From assembly GCF_030684315.1 (NCBI RefSeq), contig NC_081374.1, forward strand, positions 25,709,978-25,773,977: 64,000 bases of DNA, given 5' to 3'. Positions 15,326-58,865 of the stretch are shown here, one piece after another. A program made the position numbers and the translations under genes. Position 1 is the stretch's first letter. Every line of letters starts with the position of its first letter. This DNA is from Stegostoma tigrinum. Lineage: Eukaryota. The notes under the pieces were generated by a model. That model had not been told where the DNA came from. It saw only the letters and a list, made by a program, of their open reading frames with translations, and ran no database searches.

Positions 15326-16408
15326 TTGACTATTTTTATTTGAACTTTAAGAATTATGAGCCAGAATAACTAAATGAAATCAATTATTCCTGCATAATGA
15401 GGGCTAATGCCTTAACTTTTTTAGAGGCCAATTCCAGTTGGGATCCTGCCCGCACAATGTGTATGAAGGAAATTCGATATGTATTCTCTTGCACATGATC
15501 GCTACCTAATCTGTTCTCAGTTTATTCTTTGTCTTCAACTTTATGTCAGCACTTCGCTGCTCTCACCCATACTTTTAAGATTCTTGATATATACAAATGA
15601 ATTTCTTAACTGTAAGCCTTTTCAGAGTTCTATTAAACACAGCATTCATCTGGTCCAAGTAAAGTTTAAGATGATGAGAAAATGTGTCCCAGGTTCTGTG
15701 CTTCATGCATTTTTTTTTTTTTCTGTTGCTTTTTCTTCTGTTGTTTGAATTCTTCCATTCCTTGCTCATCCTTCTATTTCTAGCAAAAGTTTCAACTGTG
15801 CAATCAGGTACTTTCTCCTCAACACTAATCAAATAGTTAGCACTTGAACAGCTTTAGAAGCAAGGTGGGCACATCTCTTAAACATTCCTAGTCCGAACGA
15901 AAACTTCTTCAATGTGAAATATTAATCTCTTTCTCTCTTGTTCTTTCACTCTCTGTCACCCTCTCCACTGCTGCCAAACCTGCTGACTATTTTGAAGTCT
16001 TGTGCTTTGATTTCATATTTCCTACTCTAACACTTTCTTCTCTTAATTAGTAATACCTGCAGAATTGTGATGTTCATCGTGGCCACTTGGATCATTATAT
16101 GCCCTATTGAAAATTCACAGCAGCATTTTTGGATGCCGGTATAGGCAGTTTCAGTTTGCCACATCTCTGCACTAAATCCATAATGAATGGAGAAGCTTTC
16201 CTGAACGTGTAGGTAATGTGCCAGTCTGCACTAAATCATGCAATTGAGTGTCAGATTTCCTGGCAGCTCTCATGATTCATGTATTTTAAGGTAATGTACC
16301 GTGCTGGTTTTACTAATGCAGATGGAACAGTTGGCTGCTAAGTGACTATAGGTATCTCTTTGGTCCTAGTACATGATCTGATTGATACAGCGCATGCAGC
16401 TATGAACA

Positions 16409-16564
16409 CAAAAGCTGACGTTTCGGGCCTAGACCCTTCATGAAGGGTCTAGGCCCGAAACGTCAGCTTTTGTGCTCCTGAGATGCTGCTTGGCCTGCTG
16501 TGTTCATCCAGCCTCACATTTTATTATCTTGGAATTCTCCAGCATCTGCAGTTCCCATTATCTC
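16409..16564. mobile_element. Young palindromic PLE-tail mini-insertion
   Basis: Perfect 68-bp palindrome at 16407-16474 centred in the hammerhead core (CCCTTCA|TGAAGGG); tail essentially identical to 26728-26851; TSD TGCAGCTATGAACA at 16395-16408 and 16565-16578. Confidence 0.95.
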
Positions 16565-22320: not shown

Positions 22321-23424
22321 TGAAAAGTTAAAGAAGGAAACAATTGACAGTTGTGGTAACTTATCCTTAGGCTATCTACTTAAATGTCCATCTTCCCCTT
22401 GCATTCCTTCATTAATTTCAGAACTCCCTACTGCTTGACTCATTTGTACTTAATGGTTTTCAAGATGTCATCTTCGGTCAGTTATGCTGACCTTTTGTGA
22501 TGACATAACTGACTGCTTCCCTGATTCTGCACATTTATGACTGCTTGAGGCAAAATTCTCATGATGCCCTGATTGCTCTACACCCTACAGCATTATGCAT
22601 CTCTGATTACTCCAAATCCCTCCTCTGTGATTCCTTGTATGTATTCTTCAAGTAGGTTATGTCAAACATGACTGCCTGGGACAATTTGTCCTTTCTATTT
22701 TCCACAGCCCAGTGTTTATATATTTGGATTACATTGAAATAAGTAGAATGCTCAATACTTCCCATATGTTACAGCACGCTTTGAAAACTGAGTCCAGCAA
22801 AGTCTACATTTGAATACAGCTTAGATTGCAGCATGAGAATTCTCCACCATGAACAAAACTCTCTTCAAGCAATGCACATGAACAAGGTCCTTTAACTTTC
22901 CGGTCATGAGGTTCACCCAATCATTTCCTGTCCAGCTCATAACCAGCTTGGTATTTGATATTGGTATAAATGATGCCATTTAATGGTTCCTGTACTACTT
23001 TCTCTTAGACATCATGATTCATCCTAACCTGTAAGTAGAACAGAATGAATATTATAGTGTGCATTTTTCCATTTTCTCACTTGCAACAGCATACTCATAT
23101 GTGATTTTCTAATCCATGCTCATGGCAGGCAATGTGACATTTAGAAAGCAGCATCTCAGGAGCACAAAAGCTGACGTTTTGGGCCTAGACCCTTCATCAG
23201 AGAGGGGGATGGGGAGAGGGAACTGGAATAAATAGGGAGAGAGGGGGAGGCAGACCGAAGATGGAGAGTAAAGAAGATAGGTGGAGAGAGTAGAGGTGGG
23301 GAGGTAGGGAGGGGATAGGTCAGTCCAGGGAAGACGGACAGGTCAAGGAGGTGGGATGAGGTTAGTAGGTAGCTGGGGGTGCGGCTTGGGGTGGGAGGAA
23401 GGGATGGGTGAGAGGAAGAACCGG

Positions 23425-24660
23425 TTAGGGAGGCAGAGACAGGTTGGACTGGTTTTGGGATGCAGTGGGTGGGGGGGAAGAGCTGGGCTGGTTGTGTGGT
23501 GCAGTCGGGGGAGGGGACGAACTAGGCTGGTTTAGGGATGCAGTCGGGGAAGGGGAGATTTTGAAACTGGTGAAGTCCACATTGATACCATATGGCTGCA
23601 GGGTTCCCAGGCAGAATATGAGTTGCTGTTCCTGCAACCTTCGGGTGGCATCATTGTGGCAGTGCAGGAGGCCCATGATGGACATGTCATCTAGAGAATG
23701 GGAGGGGGAGTGGAAATGGTTTGCGACTGGGAGGTGCAGTTGTTTGTTGCGAACTGAGCGGAGGTGTTCTGCAAAGCGGTCCCCAAGCCTCCGCTTGGTT
23801 TCCCCAATGTAGAGGAAGCCGCACCGGGTACAGTGGATGCAGTATACCACATTGGCAGATGTGCAGGTGAACCTCTGCTTAATGTGGAATGTCATTTTGG
23901 GGCCTGGGATAGGGGTGAGGGAGGAGGTGTGGGGACAAGTGTAGCATTTCCTACGGTTGCAGGGGAAGGTGCCGGGTGTGGTGGGGTTGGAGGGCAGTGT
24001 GGAGCGAACAAGGGAGTCACGGAGAGAGTGGTCTCTCCGGAAAGCAGACAGGGGAGGGGATGGAAAAATGTCTTGGGTGGTGGGGTCGGATTGTAAATGG
24101 CGGAAGTGTCGCAGGATGATGCGTTGTATCCGGAGGTTGGTAGGGTGGTGTGTGAGAACGAGGGAGATCCTCTTAGGGCGGTTGTGGCGGGGGCGGGGTT
24201 TGAGGGATGTGTTGCGGGAAATACGGGAGACGCGGTCAAGGGCGTTCTCGATCACTGTGGGGGGAAAGTTGCGGCCCTGAAAGAACTTGGACATCTGGGA
24301 TGTGCGGGAGTGGAATGTCTTATCGTGGGAGCAGATGCGGCGGAGGTGGAGGAATTGGGAATAAGGGATGGAATTTTTGCAGGAGGGTGGGTGGGAGGAG
24401 GTGTATTCAAGGTAGCTGTGGGAGTCGGTGGGCTTGAAATGGACATCAGTTACAAGCTGGTTGCCTGAGATGGAGACTGAGAGGTCCAGGAAGGTGAGGG
24501 ATGTGCTGCAGATGGCCCAGGTGAACTGAAGGTTGGGGTGGAAGGTGTTGGTGAAGTGGATGAACTGTTCGAGCTCCTCTGGGGAGCAAGAGGCGGCGCC
24601 GATACAGTCATCAATGTACCGGAGGAAGAGGTGGGGTTTGGGGCCTGTGTAGGTGCGGAA
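23425..24660 (-). pseudogene. 5'-truncated PLE ORF in the left arm: RT C-terminal half, Zn linker and GIY-YIG endonuclease
   Basis: FRTYTGPKPHLFLRYIDD...CNRRKCYTC...NVVYCIHCTRCGFLYIGETKRRLGDRFAEH; frame open but no native start. Confidence 0.92.
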
Positions 24661-26499
24661 CCCTACCGCCTCCTCAATCATGACCCCACACCCGAGCACC
24701 AAACCATCATCTCCAACACCATTCACGACCTCATCACCTCAGGGGACCTCCCACCCACAGCCTCCAACCTCATTGTTCCCCAACCCCGCACGGCCCGTTT
24801 CTATCTCCTTCCCAAAATCCACAAACCTGTCTGCCCTGGTCGACCCATCGTCTCAGCCTGCTCCTGCCCCACCGAACTCATCTCCACCTATCCGGACTCC
24901 ATTTTCTCCCCTTTGGTCCAGGAACTCCCCACCTACGTCCGTGACACTACCCACGCCCTCCACCTCCTCCAGGGCTTCCAATTCCCTGGCCCCCAACACC
25001 TCATATTCACCATGGATGTCCAGTCCCTGTACACCTGCATTCCGCATGGAGATGGCCTCAAGGCCCTCCGCTTCTTCCTGTCCCGCAGGCCCGACCAGTC
25101 CCCCTCCACCGACACTCTCATCCGCCTAGCTGAACTCGTCCTCACACTCAACAACGTCTCTTTTGACTCCTCCCACTTCCTACAGACTAAGGGGGTGGCC
25201 ATGGGCACCCGCATGGGCCCCAGCTATGCCTGCCTCTTTGTAGGTTATGTGGAACAGTCCCTCTTCCGCACCTACACAGGCCCCAAACCCCACCTTTTCC
25301 TCCGGTACATTGATGATTGTATCGGCGCCGCCTCTTGCTCCCCAGAGGAGCTTGAACAGTTCATCCACTTCACCAACACCTTCCACCCCAACCTTCAGTT
25401 CACCTGGGCCATCTGCAGCACATCCGTCACCTTCCTGGACCTCTCAGTCTCCATCTCAGGCAACCAGCTTGTAACTGATGTCCATTTCAAGCCCACCGAC
25501 TCCCACAGCTACCTAGAATACACCTCCTCCCACCCACCCTCCTGCAAAAATTCCATCCGCTATTCCCAATTCCTCCGCCTCCACCGCATCTGCTCCCACG
25601 ATAAGACATTCCACTCCCGCACATCCCAGATGTCCAAGTTCTTTCAGGACCGCAACTTTCCCCCCACAGTGATCGAGAATGCCCTTGACCGCGTCTCCCG
25701 TATTTCCCGCAACACATCCCTCACACCCCGCCTCCGCCACAACCGCCCTAAGAGGATCCCCCTTGTTCTCACACACCACCCTACCAACCTCCGGATACAA
25801 CGCATCATCCTGCGACACTTCCGCCATTTACAATCCGACCCCACCACCCAAGACATTTTTCCATCCCCTCCCCTGTCTGCTTTCCGGAGAGACCACTCTC
25901 TCCGTGACTCCCTTGTTCGCTCCACACTCCCCTCCAACCCCACCACACCCGGCACCTTCCCCTGCAACCGCAGGAAATGCTACACTTGTCCCCACACCTC
26001 CTCCCTCACCCCTATCCCAGGCCCCAAAATGACATTCCACATTAAGCAGAGGTTCACCTGCACATCTGCCAATGTGTTATACTGCATCCACTGTACCCGG
26101 TGCGGCTTCCTCTACATTGGGCAAACCAAGCGGAGGCTTGGGGACCGCTTTGCAGAACACCTCCGCTCAGTTCGCAACAAACAACTGCACCTCCCAGTCG
26201 CAAACCATTTCCACTCCCCCTCCCATTCTCTAGATGACATGTCCATCATGGGCCTCCTGCACTGCCACAATGATGCCACCCGAAGGTTGCAGGAACAGCA
26301 ACCCATATTCCGCCTGGGAACCCTGCAGCCATATGGTATCAATGTGGACTTCACCAGTTTCAAAATCTCCCCTTCCCCTACTGCATCCCTAAACCAGCCT
26401 AGTTCGTCCCCTCCCCCGACTGCACCACACAACCAGCCCAGCTCTTCCCCCCCACCCACTGCATCCCAAAACCAGTCCAACCTGTCTCTGCCTCCCTAA
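24661..26499 (+). CDS. 5'-truncated but uninterrupted PLE polyprotein: reverse transcriptase, Cys-rich linker and GIY-YIG endonuclease (Neptune clade)
   Basis: RT motifs FYLLPKIHK, GRPIVS, FTMDVQSLYT, QTKGVAMGTRMGPSYA, RYIDD; linker CNRRKCYTC; endonuclease VLYCIHCTRCGFLYIGQT..R..EH..VANHF; residues upstream of 24661 are antisense left arm. Confidence 0.93.
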   Translation, partial: PYRLLNHDPTPEHQTIISNTIHDLITSGDLPPTASNLIVPQPRTARFYLLPKIHKPVCPGRPIVSACSCPTELISTYPDSIFSPLVQELPTYVRDTTHALHLLQGFQFPGPQHLIFTMDVQSLYTCIPHGDGLKALRFFLSRRPDQSPSTDTLIRLAELVLTLNNVSFDSSHFLQTKGVAMGTRMGPSYACLFVGYVEQSLFRTYTGPKPHLFLRYIDDCIGAASCSPEELEQFIHFTNTFHPNLQFTWAICSTSVTFLDLSVSISGNQLVTDVHFKPTDSHSYLEYTSSHPPSCKNSIRYSQFLRLHRICSHDKTFHSRTSQMSKFFQDRNFPPTVIENALDRVSRISRNTSLTPRLRHNRPKRIPLVLTHHPTNLRIQRIILRHFRHLQSDPTTQDIFPSPPLSAFRRDHSLRDSLVRSTLPSNPTTPGTFPCNRRKCYTCPHTSSLTPIPGPKMTFHIKQRFTCTSANVLYCIHCTRCGFLYIGQTKRRLGDRFAEHLRSVRNKQLHLPVANHFHSPSHSLDDMSIMGLLHCHNDATRRLQEQQPIFRLGTLQPYGINVDFTSFKISPSPTASLNQPSSSPPPTAPHNQPSSSPPPTASQNQSNLSLPP

Positions 26500-26723
26500 C
26501 CGGTTCTTCCTCTCACCCATCCCTTCCTCCCACCCCAAGCCGCACCCCCAGCTACCTACTAACCTCATCCCACCTCCTTGACCTGTCCGTCTTCCCTGGA
26601 CTGACCTATCCCCTCCCTACCTCCCCACCTACACTCTCTCCACCTATATTCTTTACTCCCCATCTTCGGTCTGCCTCCCCCTCTCTCCCTATTTATTCCA
26701 GTTCCCTCTCCCCATCCCCCTCT

Positions 26724-26751
26724 CTGATGAAGGGTCTAGGCCCGAAACGTC
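26724..26751 (+). ncRNA. Minimal type I hammerhead-like motif in the PLE 3' UTR
   Basis: CTGATGA-A-GGGTCTAGGCCC-GAAAC-GTC: core intact, loop-less ACGT helix III; helix I only about 2 bp by eye. The left-arm copy (23173-23200) has GAAA mutated to AAAA. Confidence 0.65.
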
Positions 26752-27096
26752 AGCTTTTGTGCTCCTGAGATGCTGCTTGGCCTGCTGTGTTCATCCAGCC
26801 TCACATTTTATTATCTTGGAATTCTCCAGCATCTGCAGTTCCCATTATATCTGTGACATTTAGAAATATTATTTTTACTCATAAGTACATTTCTCTGAAT
26901 TTCTTAAAATTTTTTTTTCAATTTTTGTGCAGATGTTGTGCAATATGTGGAGCAAATATACAACTCATGACGAATATTTGCCATGAGACTTTACGTGCAT
27001 TTGCTTCTGTAATTCTCCAAATTCAACAGGGCCTACATTTTTTGAAGAACTTTCTCTTAAATATATGGAAATTGCTTTTAAAAAAAGCCCCTATTA

Positions 27097-27409
27097 TAGA
27101 TTAGATTCCCTACAGTGTGGAAACAGGCCCTTCGGCCCAACAAGTCCACACTGCCACTTGAAGCATCCCACCCAGACCCATCCCCCGATAACCCACACAC
27201 CCCTGAACACTACGGGCAATTTAGCATGGCCAATCCACCTAGCCTGCACATCTTTGGACTGTGGGAGGAAACCGGCGCACCCGGAGGAAACCCACACAGA
27301 CACGGGGAGAATGTGCAAACTCCACACACAGTTACCCGAGGCTGGAATCGAACCCGGGTCCCTGGTGCTGTGAGGCTGCAGTGCTAACCACTGAGCCACC
27401 GTGCCACCC
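27097..27409 (-). mobile_element. Full-length young HE1-type SINE
   Basis: tRNA head with A box (TGGCTCAGTGG) and B box (GGTTCGATTCC), central body, CR1-like tail ending (AATCT)n. Confidence 0.92.
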
Positions 27410-28169
27410 TGTTCCCCATCCACTATATATAACTGTTCCTTTTAGCAATAAATGCAAAATAGTTTACTGTATTGAAATTCAAATATCAGAACATGGTTGC
27501 AAATCCCAACCATTTAGGGTTAAATTTTACTCGGAATGTGGGGTCTGATGTTTGGTGCAAAAGTCGGGGGAGTGCACTTGGCTGACCTGCCAGCAACCGT
27601 ATACCAGACATTGGACCTTAAGGTGAAATTTGGAGATATTTGAATTCCAACCCAAGAAGAAGTCCTCACATCAAACACTGCCAAGCATTCAAATGGCTGA
27701 GAAATACCTTGACCCAGTAATAGCACCAGGAGCCAGGGAATTGTGTAGAAAATTCAGGAGTGGATGGGATATGGGTTGGGGGTGGAACATTCAGGAAGCC
27801 ATGCGAATCGGGAAGAAGAAACACCTGTATGAACACCCGAGAACTGCCCAACAGATTCTCATCACTATACATGCCACAGGCAATTGGTATTGGTCTCCTT
27901 CATCATAAGAAGTCATCGTTGTTGTGAGGAAGCCCTTAAGTATACAGTTAAAGGCCTCAATTGGTCATGGGCAAACAAGCAAATCACCTGATGGCCCCGC
28001 TCACTTCCCTCAGTCAGTTTGTGTAAAGTATGCACAAGTCATGAGAATCCGATGGCTAGATGGACACATGCTGCTACCAAGGGATGCAATTTTTTTACTC
28101 CACCCTCTTCTACCTGTTATCCCATTTCCATAATTTTAGCCAGGTTCTGTACAGTACTCCTCCAAACAC

Positions 28170-37815: not shown

Positions 37816-37935
37816 CAGTGATAATGGGAACTGCAGACGCTGGAGAATCCAAGATAACAAAGTGTGGAGCTGGATGAACACAGCAGGCCATGCTGCTTGG
37901 CCTGCTGTGTTCATCCAGCTCCACACTTTGTTATC
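37816..37935. mobile_element. Palindromic PLE-tail mini-insertion lacking the hammerhead
   Basis: agataacaaagtgtggagctggatgaacacagcaggcca / tggcctgctgtgttcatccagctccacactttgttatct; imperfect flanking repeat TCTGGAATG(G/A)AAT at 37798-37810 and 37934-37946. Confidence 0.88.
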
Positions 37936-38066
37936 TGGAATGAAATGGCCAGTTTGGCCAATGTTATTAAGCGCAGATCGGTTTTGGGGTTCATTTATGG
38001 GAGTTCCCTGCTTCTGGGGGCAGGGGAATTGTGTGGAGGGGGAGTCTGCCTGGGAGTCCTGGGTGT

Positions 38067-39760: not shown

Positions 39761-40074
39761 AGATTAGATTTCCTACAGTGTGGAAACAGGCCCTTCGGCC
39801 CAACAAGTCCACACTGCCCATTGAAGCATCCCACCCAGACCCATCCCCCTATAACCCTCACACCCCTGAACACTACAGGCAATTTAGCATGGCCAATCCA
39901 CCTAACCTGCACATCTTTGGACTGTGGGAGGAAACCGGAGCACCCGGAGGAAACCCACACAGACACGGGGAGAATGTGCAAACTCCACACAGACAGTTGC
40001 CCGAGGTGGGAATCAAACCCGGGTCCCTGGCGCTGTGAGGCTGCAGTGCTAACCACTGAGCCACCATGCTGCCC
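39761..40074 (-). mobile_element. Full-length young HE1-type SINE
   Basis: Nearly colinear with 27097-27409. Confidence 0.92.
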
Positions 40075-40149
40075 TTAAGAAGATTAAGTTCAAGATTTAT
40101 ATCATCTAAGCTGCAGTGAAAATTCTTAGTTGTGAACTATGTATAGGTT

Positions 40150-47158: not shown

Positions 47159-49834
47159 TGTTTGAAAAGGCAGGTAGGAAAGGAAGGACTCAAAAATTGA
47201 GCGTGCACTGTGCACATTGAAGGCATCCTCCAACATGTCACTGCACTTTACTCCTTACTGTCTGCCTACAAGCATGACTCAAGATGCTTTGATCCTCTGC
47301 CATCTTAAAGACCCAGAAATTAACTAGTCTCCAATTGTCACGGACTTCTTCTTGAAGACTACATCCTGAGATCTGGTGTTGCCTGCATTGTTACAGATGC
47401 TGGACAGCCACATTGCAGTGGAGCTCCAACATCCTCTCTGTTTAGCCCAGTTGCAGCATGTCACTGCTGTTTAAAATGCTATAAAGTCAAATCATTTGAG
47501 ACTGACTTTCATTTGGAGGGGCCCTCCACCCACTGCCAGCTCAATGAATCCAGCATGGGAAAGCAGGACTGTTTGGGGTGCAGAACCCCTCCCGGAGGAA
47601 ACAGTCAATTCACTTCCTTTAGATGTTCATGGGAGGGGTGCCCCTTGAAAGGGGAAGCTGATCACAGCCAGCAAGTTACAGGGAGCACGCTTCAAAACAG
47701 AAGTCCCCTCTTGCCAACATTTTCACGTCTTTGAATAAAAGAAAGAAAACAGCCACTATATTTTGGATGGGGTTTTGTTGCAGCTGGGTGTGGGGGTGGG
47801 AAGCACCAGTGGGAACTGTGTCGGATTTCCTTTGCATGGCATCCTTTTGACTCTATATCCCCAATGGGAAGACCTGTAAGCTTGCCTGGATCATGTTACC
47901 CCCTCCCCTCCCCGACCCCCCCCAAAAAAAACACCACCACCATCACTGGTCTGCTTTAGATGTCTCCCTTTCTCCTTCTCTCAATTACAGAAACATCCTA
48001 CATCAACCTATACGGAATATATAGCTCCAGAACAACCCACTTGACCAAACCAGCTCCTTTGACATTTTCCATTTAGACCCCATCCCATCCTTTCTCACCC
48101 AGCTCCAGCATTGTGAAAATTTCTGACTCCCTGATGCAGATCTGTTGCCTCCTTAAATATGTCACCCACTTCCTGTGGTACTGGGTTTCATGTTCTGACC
48201 ACTCTCTGGATTAAGAAATTATTGCTTTTGAATTTCGTCTTTGATCTTCTTGATTAACCATGATGATAACCTTGAGTTTTACCCTGTCTTGTGTCCACCC
48301 CTGCCTCCAGCAACCCGCAGAATTCCAATGCAATGATGCAACTTGTTTTTTGGTTCATATAAGAGTACTTAACCAAATATTAATCTTCATGAAAAGCAAC
48401 TTCAGTTTAACCTGCTAGCTAGCGTAGCACCTCCCTTTGAATGTTTGTTCTGCACGGGTCTGTGTTGATGAACGAATCATCTTTTTTAAAAGGAAGTTTT
48501 TGACATGCTCTTTGAAATACACATCTCAACCAGTTATGTAGGAAATCATCAAAGCATTCTGAAACATTACATTTCTTATTGATTTTTTTTATGGATACAG
48601 GAACTCTTAGCTCAGTGATTTTGTTTGAAATCAAATTTTATACTAAGTCTGAATATTCAATTATTAAATGTGTTTGTTCTGCTGACTGCTAAACCTTAAT
48701 TGCTCAACATGTTAAATGCATTTTGCTTAAGTCATTTTTTCAATGACAAACTATGTTGATAAATGTCTAATTTCTTTTTCCCCTAAGGAATGTGAAATTG
48801 GCATGAAATGTCATAATTAAATTGAAAACACGGTAAGCTTAAAGTGATGCAACAGGATAAAGCTGCCAACTAATGTCCTCGTGAAGTGTTTCAATACCTT
48901 CTTCAGTACTTGAGCACCTGAATAATTGAAGTAAATGTCTTCCCTTGAATATGGTTGCAATTAGATAATACCTAAGTAAATCATTTTTAATATAGCAAAT
49001 ATCAAATTGATTTGTTTCATGAAGGGATATGAAGGCATAAATTTTGAATTATTGCCACTCTTTTTAATTAGAATATAGGTGTCCTTTCAACATATATAAA
49101 TTGGATTCAACCTAATACTTTATGACACAATGGAATGGTTTTCTTTCAAAGTGACTGAAATATTCACTGCATAACAGTTGAATATGTACTGTGCAAAGCT
49201 TCAAAGTCCACATAAATTAACATGTCTCCAGCAATTTTAGGACTATCATGCAAATTATACTAAACAATGAAACCATTTTGCGGGCTGTTTGCAATTTCAA
49301 ATATTATTTCCATATTCTAAAATTAGTGAACCACTTGCATGATTACCTCATCAGAACTGTAGTCAATTCTTAATAGATCTTTCTACATGTAAATAACCAT
49401 CGACAATGAGGGAGTTCCGGCTCCAATTAGTTTACTGAGCATTGTACCATCTTCCTCAATTTGAAAGTAATTGGCCAATGGTAATGTGAGCATGAAATGT
49501 GGAATTACACGATGGGAATGCTGATTGATAAACTAGTATTTCACCAAAAATGTAAAACATTGCCCAAAGTATAGTTAACAATTTTAAAATATTCAACCTA
49601 GCATCTGGATACAACAAACTATTGGTTGACCAATGTTCTCCCTTTCTTGCATGAGAGAATAGGGTAAATATTGAAGCCTCCCTGTTTTGGCAAAGAAGAT
49701 AGACAAGTCTGGAAAATGCAAGTTCCACTCCCAAACATGGGATTTCCTACTTTCATGGGAGCAATTCACTTTTCACACATATGGGTTTCACAGCGATAAC
49801 TGGCCTTTTAAATGAGCAGTTGCCTCTATTTAAG

Positions 49835-50025
49835 AGATAGTAGGAACTGCTGATGCTGAAGAATCTGAGATAACAATGTGAACACAGCAGGCCAAGCATT
49901 ATCAGTGGAGAAGGGAAGATGATGTTTCGGGTCTGGTCCCTGAAGAAGGGTCCAGACCCGAAACGTCAGCTTTCCTGCTCCTCTGATGCTGCTTGGCCTG
50001 CTGTGTTTATCCAGCTCTATACCTT
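49835..50025. mobile_element. Palindromic PLE-tail mini-insertion with intact hammerhead-like core
   Basis: CTGAAGA-A-GGGTCCAGACCC-GAAAC-GTC at 49940-49967, at the arm junction; TSD GTTGCC(T/A)CTATTTAAG at 49819-49834 and 50026-50041. Confidence 0.88.
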
Positions 50026-58641: not shown

Positions 58642-58865
58642 GATAATAAAATGTGAGGCTGGATGAACACAGCAGGCCCAGCAGCATCTCAGGAGCACAA
58701 AAGCTGGCATTTCGGGCCTAGACCCTTCACCAGAGCCCTCTGATGAAGGGTTTAGGCCCGAAACGTCAGCTTTTGTCCACCTGAGATGCTGCTGGGCCTG
58801 CTGTGTTCATCCAGCCTCACATTTTATTATCTTGGATTCTCCAGCATCTGCAGTTCCCATTATCA
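58642..58865. mobile_element. Young palindromic PLE-tail mini-insertion with two hammerhead-like cores back to back
   Basis: Arms of about 94 bp meet at ~58735; core CTGATGA..GAAACGTC at 58740-58767; exact TSD CTTTAAAAAATATGG at 58627-58641 and 58866-58880. Confidence 0.95.

Follow-up and report, generated by a model that had tools for sequence, protein, structure and literature searches.

Architecture of the locus

At positions 23133 to 26866 of a 64,000-nucleotide stretch of the Stegostoma tigrinum genome (contig NC_081374.1, positions 25,709,978 to 25,773,977; hereafter the window, whose numbering is used throughout), two 5'-truncated copies of a Penelope-like element (PLE) lie head to head (Table 1). 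An earlier reading of the letters alone (the sequence-only reading) had described a 1513-bp mirror within one target-site duplication (TSD), and we found both. The mirrored parts, 23148-24660 and 25264-26776, are ungapped reverse complements with 27 differences. In a self-BLAST of the window they formed the sole long inverted match (23146-24660 against 26778-25264, 1515 bp, 98.2% identity, 0 gaps), whose two extra nucleotides are an AA common to the TSD and the element. The TSD, TGTGACATTTAGAAA, is an exact 15-bp direct repeat that encloses both arms.

The right arm exceeds the mirrored part by about 600 unique bases inward and by a 73-nt tail outward, and its 5' truncation point lies just downstream of the DKG motif. 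Measured against a natural full-length unit of 3711 nt in locus L047 (L-numbers denote genome loci sampled for family copies), the arms begin at positions 1523 and 2125. The outer end of the left arm lies about 37 nt deeper in the element than the usual short end of the family. At the centre, other copies differ in sequence upstream of 24662, so that 24661 is a single added base without microhomology.

Independent CpG-type changes in the two arms had also been proposed. This holds for the changes that were named: the peptide variants FLHLRR and FLRLHR each go back to a CpG transition, at 25577 in the left arm and at 25583 in the right, and in the left arm's hammerhead-like motif GAAA became AAAA through a CpG G>A at the mirror of 26744. 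It does not hold for the arms overall, since only 7 of the 27 differences are CpG transitions and 20 are not.

The window contains five further mini head-to-head copies of the 3' end of the family, at 16404-16564, 58642-58864, 37820-37941, 931-1143 and 49834-50015. The first two retain TSDs of 14 and 15 bp, respectively, and share the layout of the locus, which is a long version of these mini-palindromes, as previously suggested; the other three are older (71-91% identity).

Table 1. Features of the head-to-head PLE insertion (window coordinates)
Feature	Position	Strand	Remarks
Left TSD copy, 15 bp	23133..23147	+	final AA also matches element (2-nt microhomology)
Left arm, short-ended, 5'-truncated PLE copy	23148..24660	-	reverse complement of 25264-26776
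Minimal hammerhead-like motif, left arm	23173..23200	-	core GAAA to AAAA (CpG G>A at 23180); read by eye
Left-arm open frame, 411 element-coded aa	23425..24660	-	reverse transcriptase from just before YIDD, thumb, Cys linker, GIY-YIG
Central head-to-head junction	24661..24661	.	one untemplated C, no microhomology
Right-arm open frame, 612 aa	24661..26499	+	reverse transcriptase, YIDD at 25306-25317, Cys linker, GIY-YIG
Right arm, tailed	24662..26851	+	3' 2.19 kb of 3.71-kb element
Right-arm portion without left-arm mirror	24662..25263	+	reverse transcriptase fingers and palm
C-x4-C-x2-C linker, CNRRKCYTC	25963..25989	+	Neptune/Nematis type; definition in PMC8557442
GIY-YIG endonuclease	26071..26340	+	C-x2-C and two His; right arm has YIGE>YIGQ
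Minimal hammerhead-like motif, right arm	26724..26751	+	CUGAUGA, short stem II, GAAAC, GUC; read by eye
3' tail, right arm only	26779..26851	+	73 nt; about 35 nt in most family pairs
Right TSD copy, 15 bp	26852..26866	+	initial TG also matches read-through sequence of element

Coding content and affiliation

Both arms carry uninterrupted reading frames, as had been noted before. The right-arm protein matched the Pfam profile RVT_1 with an E-value of 7.6e-5, below the curated cut-off, and this was the sole domain match among the window proteins in the profile search. At the level of motifs, YIDD and VxY...YIG align with eight homologues, two of which carry Pfam PF01541. The CCHH endonuclease motif (CTRC, RFAEH, ANHF) is present in both arms and is kept in the homologues reaching that far, while a DKG motif was found upstream in longer copies. 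The layout is that of endonuclease-containing (EN+) PLEs, with one open reading frame (ORF) in which a PLE-type reverse transcriptase (RT) is followed by a C-terminal GIY-YIG domain. The EN+ arrangement, tandem or inverted pseudo-long terminal repeats (pLTRs) with a tail at one end and a TSD, is also found in the family; partial tandems occur at L044, L047, L064 and L124. Judged by its sequence, the element is thus an EN+ PLE with a Neptune/Nematis-type linker: a CX2-5CxxC, Zn-finger-like linker between RT and endonuclease is given as the mark of these two clades in the accessible part of PMC8557442. The name Neptune, assigned by the sequence-only reading, would fit the motifs, but Nematis carries the identical linker type. 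The nearest named proteins were from zebra shark (93%), whale shark (87%) and bamboo shark (65-76%).

The left-arm frame has no start and most of its RT is missing. In neither arm did we find the attributes of an autonomous copy, that is, a full ORF with a start, the N-terminal domain and an upstream pLTR. Since both arms are without start and DKG motif, they cannot be autonomous.

The hammerhead-like motifs in both arms were recognized by eye. An Rfam search returned no hammerhead match in the 3' end of the element, and the fold of this end was not significant (z-score 0.61). PLE hammerheads are described, in the portion of PMC6155905 at hand, as usually minimal and without helix III. In mini copies at many loci (for example L217, L225, L233 and L244), the 5' ends cluster, with varied junctions, at the equivalent of 26718-26729, the start of the hammerhead-like core. 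The cluster does not coincide with the expected hammerhead cleavage site (26751); either RT may stop strongly at the start of the core, or an RNA may have its 5' end there.

Support for a common source of both arms

We compared the arms with other copies of the family. The main sample comprised 87 loci including the window, picked by similarity to the locus and hence biased towards long, conserved copies. Matches below 92-93% identity were excluded, with a threshold of 85% for end-class counts and partner rankings. We also excluded the rows for L050 and L051 (near-identical segmental duplicates of the L037 region), L146 and L147 (same places as L127 and L134), L163 and L190 (overlapping partner loci), and L001-L030 and L068-L097 (replaced by 10-kb fetches).

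Against a larger copy set, the arms share 10 non-majority alleles, which span the whole arm from 25415 to 26672. Three of them are rare: 25415G occurred in none of 111 other copies, 26028A in none of 132 and 25812G in one of 129, and no other examined copy has all three together. When 70 copies were used for comparison, the derived differences were distributed over both arms, 15 in the right and 12 in the left. Assignment of the arms to different subfamilies had been named as the result that would speak against a single insertion; both fell into one subfamily and disagree at two common sites, one of them a CpG and the other beside another change. Among 40 scored candidates, the best other match of the right arm was the left arm. 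The single event that had been claimed is therefore well supported by the one enclosing TSD, the shared subfamily alleles and the three rare variants.

Searches of the genome with the rare alleles gave 60 places for 25415G and 115 for 26028A, of which 100 were listed; among the matches listed, no other locus carried both, and none of 28 loci examined from the 25415G list had 25812G or 26028A. The pair 25812G and 26028A was found at only four places, two of them these arms and two at loci that are not close siblings. The shared rare alleles may stem from donor mutations, RT errors or conversion.

The same relation was seen in the entire sample. Between the arms of the 56 head-to-head pairs, 64 of 675 polymorphic site-pairs are discordant, against 37% when copies are paired at random, and 56 private variants in 52 kb are shared (1.07 per kb versus 0.009 per kb in the control, which used a closely similar, not identical, definition). 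A different picture was seen at locus L108 (660-4533), whose arms lie in one 14-bp TSD. In the inner 0.7 kb each arm is closest to the other, but in the outer 1.2 kb the two differ in haplotype, with 30 differences, and the partner ranks low among 122 copies. A template switch, the use of two templates or a long conversion tract may account for this.

Probable priming from both target strands

We consider it likely, with a probability of about 75%, that the locus is one old, non-autonomous head-to-head insertion, probably made when both target strands were cleaved by the enzyme of the element and each served as primer for reverse transcription of RNA from a single source locus. A staggered cut of 15 nt would have given rise to the observed TSD. 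Priming would then have begun at the tail end (26851) from one target 3' end and further inside the element from the other (26776-26778, compared with a usual inner priming site of about 26811-26819), each primer with 2 nt of pairing; the two ends themselves are observed. The two complementary DNAs (cDNAs) would have stopped independently after 2.19 and 1.51 kb and been end-joined with one added base at the junction that is observed today, after which the arms diverged by 15 and 12 observed changes. One RNA or two RNAs from one source locus may have served.

This order of events draws on the regularity of the family. In the 56 pairs, a long end at the tail tip is combined with a short end about 35 nt inside in 46 cases, with another, deeper inner end in six, with a second long end in two, and two pairs have two short ends. 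From this strict coupling we infer two RT active sites spaced about 35 nt apart on a single RNA, at about even odds. In the available text of PMC11167929, the protein of a Poseidon PLE from Anolis carolinensis cuts and extends both target strands in vitro, and two RT start sites bound the tail. At the outer junctions, an overlap with the target of at least 2 nt was seen for 17/41 long ends and 20/41 short ends (37/82 versus 18% by chance). Among 55 centres, 28 contained inserted bases, 10 were blunt, 10 had an overlap of 1 nt and seven an overlap of at least 2 nt; the centres are mostly end-joined.

A rival proposal (PMC3846280, as far as its text was available) starts from a self-primed hairpin: the antisense RNA or first cDNA folds back at its 5' truncation point and is copied in a single event, and an endonuclease resolves the hairpin into the target, with the tail left at one end. 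Such a hairpin would directly account for arms of the same source with shared rare variants, and its geometry is possible at this locus. A slight excess of insertion-free centres with at least 2 nt of microhomology (7/27 versus about 12% by chance) and a slightly higher density of shared private variants near the centre (1.7 versus 0.95 per kb) also speak for it. However, the centre of the locus has one added base and no pairing, and 38 of the 55 family centres are blunt or carry insertions, while the antisense version predicts central pairing. The 5' reach, scored in 45 pairs, was greater for the short-ended arm in 20, greater for the tailed arm in 16 and equal in nine. Plain copying of the first cDNA cannot produce the 20 pairs whose short-ended arm is longer, so the cDNA version fails for them; the antisense-RNA version does not. 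In vitro, moreover, the starts were target-primed at both tail boundaries in the Anolis experiments reported in the portion of PMC11167929 at hand. Overall, the family pattern agrees better with priming by both target strands on one source RNA than with fold-back, which we regard as unlikely for the locus.

Less probable still are two RNAs from two source loci copied into one cut, or two successive insertions at the same site, with partial gene conversion afterwards. The 20 non-CpG changes among the 27 differences, the divergent outer haplotypes of L108 within its single TSD and the disagreement of arm pairs at 9.5% of polymorphic sites, above a background of about 1.2%, would agree with this. 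Yet nearly all 27 differences are rare against the family majority and are divided between the arms (15 right, 12 left), the shared alleles are distributed over the entire arm instead of one tract, and a second TSD is absent.

Very improbable is a fold-back chimera of the assembly or a subsequent duplication of the DNA in inverted orientation. Both outer junctions were recovered with 0 differences in unbranched short-read contigs from three runs of two samples; run X1, from another organism, gave no cover of the flanks. The central junction was spanned by none of the contigs or reads listed (2336 pieces lay outside the listing and the raw bisulfite reads were sampled at 1%). But the 27 differences between the arms run in both directions, and arms so divergent inside an exact TSD argue against a fold-back artefact, as does the identical layout of 55 other pairs.

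Several observations weigh against priming from both strands on one source RNA. With the left arm as query, two other genomic copies outscored the right arm, and the partner of the left arm ranked 4 of 109 copies; the arms disagree at 26632, a common non-CpG site, and two of the alleles on the left arm recur in five and six other copies, respectively. In seven of 26 long pairs, the partner lies outside the two nearest copies of both arms. Later conversion from arm to arm could explain shared rare variants, and the allele searches found no sibling insertion from the same donor. The left end is atypical, with its depth reached by one of 41 short ends with TSD; deeper ends with an intact TSD exist elsewhere, at 16404 of the window and at L056. 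Because the tailed arm is the longer one, fold-back would also fit the locus taken alone. The Anolis protein belongs to a different clade, Poseidon, and in the accessible part of PMC11167929 the cut site and the RT start are reported to share no homology. Finally, a single RNA predicts tail-only stubs on solo short-ended copies, and these were mostly absent: an inverted stub of at least 8 nt was present in three of 19 unpaired copies with TSD, while for 43 more no TSD was found. This prediction is not supported beyond L037 (948-3181), where the pair lies within a 15-bp TSD and the tailed arm is reduced to the final 30 nt.

The seven long pairs and L108 point to conversion or template switching that affects a minority of insertions. 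Generalizing priming from both strands to the family, each inverted insertion would arise from two RT sites on opposite strands, with fixed starts about 35 nt apart on RNA of one source and end-joined cDNAs; this we hold at slightly less than an even chance. In a minority of insertions, L108 perhaps among them, the template may be switched or two RNAs may serve.

Of 29 isolated copies in L031-L134, 17 are short-ended and 12 tail-ended; a TSD was identified for eight and two of them, respectively, and thus either start site alone can yield an insertion. At L046, L122, L153, L160 and L121, the 5' or central junction holds short element segments two or three times over, a pattern that resembles RT stutter or templated end-joining.

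Age and activity

The sequence-only reading had regarded the insertion as recent, which our data do not bear out. The 27 differences in 1515 bp correspond to 0.89% per arm, and the arm divergence of 1.78% ranks 31 of 40 measured pairs (median 1.2%; three pairs have zero differences). With the rate of the epaulette shark, 7e-10 per base and generation (95% confidence interval 1.4-14.1e-10; PMC10587355, available in part), this gives an age of about 13 million generations (6-64 million), with the caveat that the rate is that of another species; the estimate would come down if RT errors or conversion contributed. Nor is an open frame a mark of youth: over similar spans, 73 of 107 and 32 of 62 other copies are likewise uninterrupted. 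An empty allele was not seen in two samples, one of which may be the source of the assembly. The insertion is likely old, non-autonomous and unable to move.

For the family, continued activity is plausible from the copies at hand. Full-length copies include the L047 unit and L124 (+ strand, unit from about 5837), the one full-length open frame in the sample, with 1060 aa from stop to stop and a partial tandem before it. The family also has younger members than the locus. The youngest-looking insertions, L064, L118, L119 and L047, have identical arms (0/1214, 0/438 and 0/354) or tandem units of 99.9% identity, and L064 and L047 belong to one common sub-haplotype.

Frequency of head-to-head copies

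The 56 head-to-head pairs were found among 208 copies in the 87-locus sample. A TSD of at least 11 bp flanked 43 of them, with a mode of 15 bp (18/43) and lengths of 13-16 bp in 39. Nor is the locus unusual in length, since both arms reach at least 1.5 kb in 13 other sampled pairs. A 35-nt stretch of the 3' end of the family has 80,910 exact matches genome-wide. The first 30 of these, taken by position, represent 23 insertions, which we classified by eye as 15 inverted, five without adjacent partner and three cut by the locus edge. The resulting inverted share of 15/20 scorable insertions is an overestimate, as a pair can be matched through either of its arms. The locus is therefore ordinary: its architecture is already published and common in the Stegostoma tigrinum genome. 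A literature search for Penelope with Stegostoma found nothing.

Outside the element, the window holds two 313-bp interspersed repeats (27098-27410 and 39761-40075) that are 94% identical and presumably resemble the shark HE1 SINE.

Relation to known systems and implications

In L1 twin priming, both target strands prime reverse transcription and an inversion within one TSD results, the inverted part being a different segment of the RNA. In contrast, both shark arms copy the same 3' region. The canonical EN+ PLE insertion, as depicted in the text available from PMC8557442, has an inverted 5'-truncated copy adjoining the 5' end and a tail of 30-40 bp at one end. The locus shares the flanking inverted repeats, the one-sided tail, the C-terminal GIY-YIG domain and the CX2-5CxxC linker, but contains neither a tandem pLTR nor a full-length unit, and its tail measures 73 nt owing to the deeper start of the left arm. 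Pen2a/Pen2 of Adineta vaga (PMC3846280, in the passages at hand) resemble it in their head-to-head inverted pLTRs within one TSD and a tail on one arm. They differ from it in that their TSDs are 9-10 bp instead of 13-16 bp, while the shark arms reach kilobases and the locus junction shows no palindrome. The authors of that study prefer antisense self-priming, which the shark junction counts do not favour. With PAc, the Poseidon PLE of Anolis carolinensis (PMC11167929, as far as accessible), the shark family shares a putative minimal hammerhead near the 3' end, and the two tail-bounding RT starts, the cutting and extension of both strands and a predicted dimer would be shared as well. Unlike the shark element, PAc belongs to the Poseidon clade and is without Cys linker; its hammerhead overlaps the ORF start, whereas the first Met of the shark element lies about 40 nt into the next unit. 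Homology to the target is not reported there for PAc, in contrast to the weak microhomology in the shark family. In the literature searched, we found no quantified statement of two-site twin priming for PLE insertions.

As a single dead copy out of many, the locus itself is of little weight; what makes it useful is the access it gives to the family. How head-to-head PLE copies and their one-sided tail arise is a question for which this family offers a countable record of tens of thousands of integrations. With more than 80,000 element ends, clean TSDs of 13-16 bp and long comparable arms, template number, priming sites and the joining of centres can be counted at scale, and such genome-scale counts can be compared with in vitro results. 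If the proposed scheme is true, genome data alone would settle the origin of the inverted pLTRs and tails of PLEs as twin target priming, not antisense self-priming.

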